From: Eledone cirrhosa
Lineage: Eukaryota
Direction: 5' to 3'
NCBI GenBank assembly: GCA_964016885.1
Contig: OZ024740.1
Span: 426,498,001 to 426,562,000, forward strand
Length of the DNA stretch: 64,000 bases
The notes beneath the pieces are model-generated. The model saw only the letters and a program-made list of their open reading frames with translations, made no database searches and had not been told where the DNA came from. Shown in pieces: positions 21,274 through 21,817 of this stretch. Position 1 is the first letter of the stretch. Each line of letters opens with the position of its first letter. The position numbers and the translations under genes are program-made.

Positions 21274-21322
<49 letters not shown>

Positions 21323-21359
21323 ATATAAAATCAAAAGATGGTTAAAAGAGAGTTCCATG

Positions 21360-21431
21360 TATTTTATTATGCGCATTTCAAAAACAAATATCATCATGGG
21401 ATGATATTTGCGTTCTCATCAGATAAAATAG
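21360..21431 (-). ncRNA. Type I hammerhead ribozyme motif
   Basis: Reverse-complement copy of 21550-21619 with a 3-nt longer stem II loop. Confidence 0.78.
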
Positions 21432-21549
21432 GGAGACATTATATGAAGCTTAAAAAACACTTGCGATCAGTGAAGTGTTAAATCAACATATATGTAGATT
21501 TAACACTTCACTGCTCGCAAATGTTTTTTAAGCTTCATATCATGTCTCC

Positions 21550-21619
21550 CTATTTTATCTGATGAGAACGCAAATATCATCCCATGATATTTGTTTTTGA
21601 AATGCGCATAATAAAATAG
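21550..21619 (+). ncRNA. Type I hammerhead ribozyme motif
   Basis: CTATTTTAT-CTGATGA-gaac GCAAATATCAT ccc ATGATATTTGT tttt-GAAA-TGCGCA-TA-ATAAAATAG. Perfect 9-bp stem I, palindromic mini stem III, predicted cleavage after 21610 (AUA). Confidence 0.82.
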
Positions 21620-21739
21620 ATGGAACTCTTTTAACCATTTTTTGATTTTATATTATTTATACTCCAGTCCTATAAACTGTTGAGTGCTACTTATCCGATA
21701 TTTGCATTGCTTTATTGTGCTACAATAAAACTCACCTCC

Positions 21740-21817
<78 letters not shown>

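Follow-up and report, generated by a model that had tools for sequence, protein, structure and literature searches.

Within a 64-kb window of the Eledone cirrhosa genome (the window being the whole stretch of DNA that was analysed), a near-perfect palindrome of ~335 bp lies in (TA)n and carries two outward-facing hammerhead motifs, which raises the question of what this structure is and how it came to be inserted. An earlier note on this DNA had described the palindrome, its setting in (TA)n and its one-sided tail, and our analysis agrees: the arms are centred at 21490/21491, ~166 bp is matched in each, with six substitutions and two small indels, and (TA)n is present at both flanks (Table 1). 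The palindrome almost certainly derives from an abundant Penelope-like element (PLE), whose hammerhead-bearing pLTR is present here as two copies placed head to head. The best overall explanation, which we regard as likely, is that these copies were made in one insertion by two target-primed reverse transcriptions of one, probably capped, RNA.

Table 1. Features of the palindromic insertion and its flanks (window coordinates).
Feature	Position	Strand	Remarks
Left flank, (TC)n then (TA)n microsatellite; putative insertion target	21275..21324	.	TA/AT-rich flanks are common among copies
Inverted pLTR copy without tail ("short-end" arm)	21321..21491	-	Starts at the putative RNA start; AT-rich end merges into (TA)n
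Type I hammerhead motif, left arm	21360..21430	-	Core intact; predicted cut 3' of 21368
Head-to-head junction	21483..21498	.	A at 21490 is a recurrent 5' end and putative transcription start; arm overlap is AT
Direct pLTR copy, part of the "long-end" arm	21490..21656	+	95% identity to the pLTR of ORF-bearing L064 and L130
Type I hammerhead motif, right arm	21550..21619	+	Core intact; loop II shortened by a 3-nt deletion; predicted cut after 21610
PLE "tail", ~85 nt	21657..21743	+	Continues into the 5' leader in tandem units; ATG of the ORF ~80 nt further
Right flank, (TA)36	21743..21814	.	

AT-rich or TA flanks were present on at least one side in 29 of the 30 top copies, and target-site duplications are unreadable inside (TA)n. 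Nearby (20470-20960 and 21040-21275) lie an inverted repeat (20500-20575/20778-20853), a 141-bp duplication and a further repeat; the end of this last repeat is also found beside another copy, L006, indicating that two elements share TA-rich sites. Elsewhere, the window holds a 29-bp satellite with ~618 copies, 95% matches and strong strand skew (1-17921), a 22-bp satellite (25834-28193, 107 copies) and a 45-bp satellite (39772-42077, 51 copies). On the minus strand, a 417-aa open frame (52241-53494) with a sub-threshold match to DUF4371 (E 6e-6) is presumably a remnant of a hAT-type transposase.

A descriptor scan of the entire 64-kb window detected the two hammerhead motifs that had been claimed, one per arm, facing outward and with intact cores, and no others. 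The conserved core, the NUH site and the three stems of a type I hammerhead are found in both arms. In the plus-strand motif, stem I (21551-21558/21611-21618) encloses CTGATGA (21559-21565), stem II (21566-21598), GAAA (21599-21602), TGCGCA (21603-21608) and then the AUA site, while the minus-strand motif reads from 21430 to 21360. The ninth base pair attributed to stem I of the plus copy is present, but it is due to a private C-to-G change, and stem I of the family is 8 bp. An Rfam scan of positions 20000-23000 returned no hammerhead match at E<=1, its 17 matches all being to microRNA models below cut-offs. Exact matches to the core numbered 22,328 genome-wide compared to 0 for a reversed control, so these matches are not due to chance. 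When ten motifs from four related subfamilies were aligned (mutually related rows, found via core-containing patterns), the core was invariant, 96% of the cells were paired and five pairs had changed on both sides; none of 500 shuffles reached this percentage of pairing. One double change, found in a related family, keeps stem III palindromic. The invariant core and the covariation of the stems across subfamilies argue that the hammerhead has been maintained in the parent lineage, and the Penelope-type identity first proposed for these motifs holds. Within an insertion, the hammerheads would be passengers, and intact copies must derive from uncut RNA. A change at G12 in both arms was found in 2 of 77 pairs. 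Similar PLE hammerhead motifs cut poorly or require protein, according to the available text of PMC4209133 and PMC11167929. At the level of the family, an upstream frame of 17 codons, with its ATG in loop II, lies ahead of the main ORF in the leader and overlaps the hammerhead (window region 21559-21640, plus strand).

The parentage of the arms is seen in longer copies, in which the arm sits at the 3' end of an RT-endonuclease ORF with its 900-nt 3' UTR, and in tandem units, in which the tail runs on into the next ORF. No trace of this ORF was detected within the 64-kb window. Open frames between pLTR copies encode 821 aa in L179, 775 aa in L181 and 808 aa in L182, in units of 3.7-3.9 kb. Identity of the window arm to pLTR plus tail is 95% for L064 and L130 and 86-88% for L179 and L181. 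The features of an endonuclease-bearing (EN+) PLE are present, namely a single ORF flanked by pLTRs, a YxDD motif, an IYEC..YFG core, tandem and inverted insertions, 5' truncation and a one-sided tail. The parent ORF has 23 homologs at E<=2e-61, 12 of them with PF26215, a domain that we take to be linked to PLE RTs. Pfam searches with the parent ORFs gave no RT or GIY-YIG match, only a sub-threshold one to DUF2209, and a PDB sequence search with the parent ORF gave no match.

On its motifs, the parent is likely a member of the Hydra clade (Craig et al. 2021, PMC8557442). As far as the available text of that source describes the clade, the two share a single RT-then-endonuclease ORF, DKT in place of DKG (DKTN at residue 144 of the L179 frame), a CxCX5C linker (at residue 680, with the same pattern in L064), a GIY-YIG core that lacks the CCHH cysteines (one cysteine in the core here), and CxxC and CxH around the conserved E and N (here CNLC..E..N..CLH). 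Targeting of (TA)n and a canonical pLTR hammerhead are common to both as well. In contrast to the clade as described there, the unit is 3.7-3.9 kb while most described families are shorter than 3 kb, RWI or RWT stands at the N-terminal position of RWK, the tail is ~85 nt rather than 30-40, and hammerhead-bearing arms number more than 22,000. Neptune, which was also considered as parent clade, was dropped in favour of Hydra on the same motifs (DKT, CxCX5C, missing CCHH and CxxC-E-N-CxH). A second, divergent ORF fragment (L069:4485-5597) carries the same Hydra-type linker and endonuclease motifs. In L179 (2590-2616), the arm with the full-length ORF begins right after the tail end, and the inverted arm is joined via an A run that mirrors the T run of the 3' UTR. 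For the tail itself, modelling suggests a terminal hairpin only; a conserved tail structure was rejected (weak consensus, unfavourable covariation term, a double change in 1 of 22 pairs), as was an apparently longer tail in L030, a single occurrence. AATAAA lies 13 nt before the tail end (window 21724-21743), so that polyadenylation could also account for the long end; the tail ends that were inspected show no poly(A).

The window copy belongs to a very large family. In the 3.0-Gb genome, the whole unit gave 2,355 first-look candidates, and the 40 of these that were scored all covered the unit nearly end to end. An exact 23-mer of the window subfamily occurs 1,377 times genome-wide, and the looser core pattern behind the 22,328 matches exposes a larger subfamily with many near-identical copies. 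We counted 13,968 exact tail ends, and in 6,363 arms the sequence continues past the centre into the native upstream region. The centre itself gave 2,443 fold-back matches (a few of them nested) compared to 8 in the control. Other copies do share the fold-back junction, as the earlier note had proposed should be checked genome-wide, and the window copy is thus not a one-off. In a related family (L108:1178-1383, L146:571-640, L116:1769-1838), stem I is the same, stem II is shorter and stem III is TATATA, and the short and long ends are shared. Stems III with other palindromes distinguish at least five further hammerhead families (L181:8261-9359, L198, L202, L100, L210, L137, L207, L021 and L018), of which the one in L181 (8261-9359) is also head-to-head.

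To describe the insertions, a hand census was made of the 85 events behind the first 100 of the 1,377 core matches, with one duplicated locus dropped. These events comprised 53 head-to-head pairs and 32 in which no second end was seen, and partners beyond 1.5-4 kb could be missed. Ten of the 85 resemble the window copy and 16 are short double-hammerhead pairs; arm lengths range from less than 50 bp to 3 kb, a continuum in which the palindromes are the shortest members. In 46 of the 53 pairs, a tailed end is combined with an untailed one, the rest having two untailed ends (2), two tailed ends (1) or unclear ends (4). This one-tail rule recurred in 31 of 37 pairs of a second, hand-counted sample chosen mostly for having two matches. 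The untailed arm extends further 5' in 27 of the 46 pairs, the tailed arm in 7, and the two are equal in 12. In 8 of the 53 pairs, one arm starts at or beyond pLTR position 150 and is barely more than the tail. A single cDNA folding back on itself cannot yield pairs with such non-nested and nearly tail-only arms.

The centre of the palindrome is likely the start of a capped RNA, as read from the bases at the junctions. Among 138 5' ends, 31 fall within 7 nt of ATATG. The native base before the centre is C, and G stands there in 2,557 of the 5,377 arms without that C, compared to 18.5% from composition; in the 29 G contexts that were inspected, the G was often explicable by microhomology with the partner arm, by the partner's native C as seen from the opposite strand or by slippage. 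A symmetrical comparison gives a cleaner test: junctions with G before both arms numbered 133, and those with C before both 18, most of which are slippage duplications. An extra G marks the capped full-length ends of L1 in the available text of PMC11702581, and Drosophila Penelope has an internal promoter (PMC2377424).

From the parentage, copy number, end geometry and junction letters observed in the copies, we infer a route of two primings at the tail edges on one, probably capped, RNA, and as a mechanism consider it fairly likely. A capped RNA would start at the A of ATATG (21490), and the RT-endonuclease of the element would nick both strands of (TA)n. One DNA end would prime at the 3' tail edge and the second one ~85 nt upstream, at the 5' tail edge, both being UA-rich sites, and both cDNAs would extend toward the 5' end of the RNA. 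On an RNA starting in the pLTR, the cDNAs would run off at the cap and join via their self-complementary ATAT ends to give a 420-bp palindrome; with read-through RNA of tandem units as the template, long inverted copies would result in the same way. For overlapping arms to come from one RNA, strand displacement or sequential copying is assumed.

Sequence variants in the arms bear on whether the two primings shared a template. In a set that includes 30 loci picked for likeness to the query, the arms of 58 short pairs shared variants at 10.0 per 1,000 sites and those of 19 pairs with a spacing of 0.4-4 kb at 9.3, compared to 2.0 between copies. Diagnostic site 161 was discordant in 6 of 80 pairs against 40 expected; sites 134, 7 and 28 agree with this result, and sites 15, 25 and 32 were not significant. 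Non-diagnostic shared variants numbered 61 in 91 pairs, compared to 4.2 with shuffled partners. Furthermore, the pairing of a start-site arm with a read-through arm was found in 0 of 90 pairs against 25.4 expected, and none of 20,000 shuffles was as low. This lack of mixing argues that both primings use the same pLTR-tail module.

It is possible, though unlikely, that the two primings used two RNAs transcribed from a single source locus and tethered to each other by a dimeric protein, perhaps also via AUGCGCAU, the self-complementary sequence of stem III. Strand displacement would no longer be needed, stem III stays palindromic through the double change in the related family, its duplex is predicted at -10.5 kcal/mol, and the protein of the anole element is predicted to be dimeric (PMC11167929, available text). 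However, full mRNAs hold both the capped leader pLTR and the 3' pLTR, so the mixed arms that were absent from all 90 pairs would be expected, and the one-tail rule would need an additional asymmetry. We consider self-priming quite unlikely; in this model, which follows the accessible part of PMC3846280, a single cDNA or an antisense template would form a fold-back at the ATAT palindrome and serve as its own template. Self-priming would account for the shared variants and the frequent perfect CATATG centre, and it suits L195 and similar rare cases. A copy made by fold-back has to lie nested within the first strand, however, in contrast to the 27 untailed arms that reach further 5' than their tailed partners; untailed arms cannot template a tail, and the extra G on both arms at 133 loci points to two run-off ends of a sense RNA. 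The case in L195 (968-1313) has two untailed ends and inverted host flanks, and resembles a later fold-back duplication.

The earlier note had regarded the locus as a minimal non-autonomous unit, that is, a 420-bp palindrome copied whole as an independent element. Such an element would explain why ~2,400 loci share the centre, about half of the matches listed having the same perfect junction, and why both outer ends recur. Our tree of 83 arms, one per locus (53 palindromes and 30 long copies, with pairs of intermediate ends excluded), speaks against it: the palindrome/long label changes 24 times compared to 24.4 when the labels are shuffled, and two sets of identical rows contain both palindromes and long copies. 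The window form accounts for just the ten events given above, the junction letters differ between copies, and the same centre and 5' edge recur in subfamilies 12-23% apart, down to 77% identity. In addition, the transcript of a whole unit would be a closed hairpin. An independent element is therefore very unlikely and is refuted as the main source; the locus is a pLTR plus the tail of an ORF-bearing element, with junctions that vary and no lineage of its own, and the palindrome is likely rebuilt at each insertion. An independent palindromic element or MITE was rejected on the same grounds, with no own lineage of fixed ends and interior and a parent that encodes an RT-endonuclease rather than a transposase.

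The same note had proposed a switch in which the transcript folds either as an active ribozyme or as a dsRNA hairpin. It appears highly improbable that the locus has been selected to switch between self-cleavage and the production of small RNAs. Both cores are intact, read-through RNA would form a 160-bp hairpin, and rotifer PLEs give small RNAs in the available text of PMC3846280. On the other side, the long hairpin of read-through RNA is predicted at -243 kcal/mol, compared to -159 with the hammerhead stems forced, and its hammerhead stem probability is 0; since the folds are 84 kcal/mol apart, no switching is predicted, the read-through RNA always being a hairpin. In an RNA starting at the palindrome centre, stem II is predicted at 0.75-1.0 and stem I partly (~0.27). 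Promoter use alone would decide the form of the RNA in these predictions. The two hammerheads, being on opposite strands, never occur together in one RNA. Both arms carry a G12 change in the two pairs mentioned, the window copy has diverged as much as its siblings, and no host gene is linked to the locus.

Spacerless palindromes are prone to gene conversion and hairpin repair, yet that such repair after insertion produced the likeness of the arms is extremely unlikely, as the equal sharing rates in short and spaced pairs argue against hairpin conversion and the counts of shared and unshared variants are not positively correlated (rho -0.23, p 0.09).

Twin priming in L1 is a minority outcome with non-overlapping arms, whereas here it is apparently the usual outcome, with two fixed sites and arms that mostly overlap. 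The resemblance lies in a second priming from the other target strand, which gives an inversion joined by microhomology, and in the extra G at full-length 5' ends (PMC11702581, available text). Close PLE counterparts are the Penelope insertions with inverted pLTR plus tail (Arkhipova et al. 2013, PMC3846280), which share head-to-head pLTRs, a junction palindrome and one tail; the part of that paper at hand explains them by self-priming on an antisense template, while the copies here point to two primings on a sense capped RNA, and the double pLTR without an ORF is here very common in its own right. The accessible text of PMC8557442 likewise describes head-to-head pLTRs of which one end is tailed. 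The type I fold, long stem II and small palindromic stem III match the pLTR hammerheads of Cervera and De la Pena (2014, PMC4209133), whose available text assigns opposite-strand hammerhead pairs 100-700 bp apart to truncated PLEs; there is no difference in kind from these, and the parent and origin of such pairs are traced here. The two RT start sites that the anole Poseidon element PAc uses in vitro (Frangieh et al. 2024, PMC11167929) bracket the tail, as do the primings proposed here, and its target is likewise AT-rich; in the available text of that study, cleavage and extension take place on both strands and insertion does not require an intact hammerhead, while PAc belongs to another clade and one start per strand within one insertion is not demonstrated there. 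Animal non-LTR retrozymes (bioRxiv 10.64898/2026.07.22.740005, in its available part) are likewise PLE-derived and protein-free with a type I hammerhead, but they form head-to-tail tandems with two ribozymes on one strand. This identity was ruled out for the window palindrome, whose hammerheads lie head-to-head on opposite strands. The formation of inverted repeats and tails in PLEs is called unresolved in the accessible parts of PMC8557442 and PMC11167929. In our literature search, with subscription papers and supplements outside its cover, neither twin priming nor a cap-derived G applied to Penelope elements was found, and within the same limited cover neither were the four counted rules (one tail, non-nested arms, extra G, no mixing of RNA classes).

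The object itself is ordinary, a PLE insertion product, and the added value is mechanistic. Twin priming, with one capped RNA and one priming per target strand at the two tail edges, could be the normal integration route of endonuclease-bearing PLEs, a generalization to which we give about an even chance. Against the reading of the palindromes as products of two primings on one RNA stand the seven of 53 pairs that violate the one-tail rule or were unscorable and the 32 of 85 events without a second end, and the available text of PMC11167929 reports no strand difference in start site for the anole element in vitro. If twin priming is normal, antisense self-priming would not be needed to explain the inverted pLTR, the one-sided tail and the junction palindrome; the genome would have recorded the transcription start in thousands of palindromes, and any tailed arm could serve as a mini-element of 255 nt, restoring its mirror image with every jump. 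For annotators, such PLE hairpins resemble microRNA precursors and MITEs, and small-RNA silencing could draw on the ~2,400 hairpins of 160 bp that may form. The signatures can be counted over thousands of short products; they favour a single model, which can be tested with an in vitro system that already exists.
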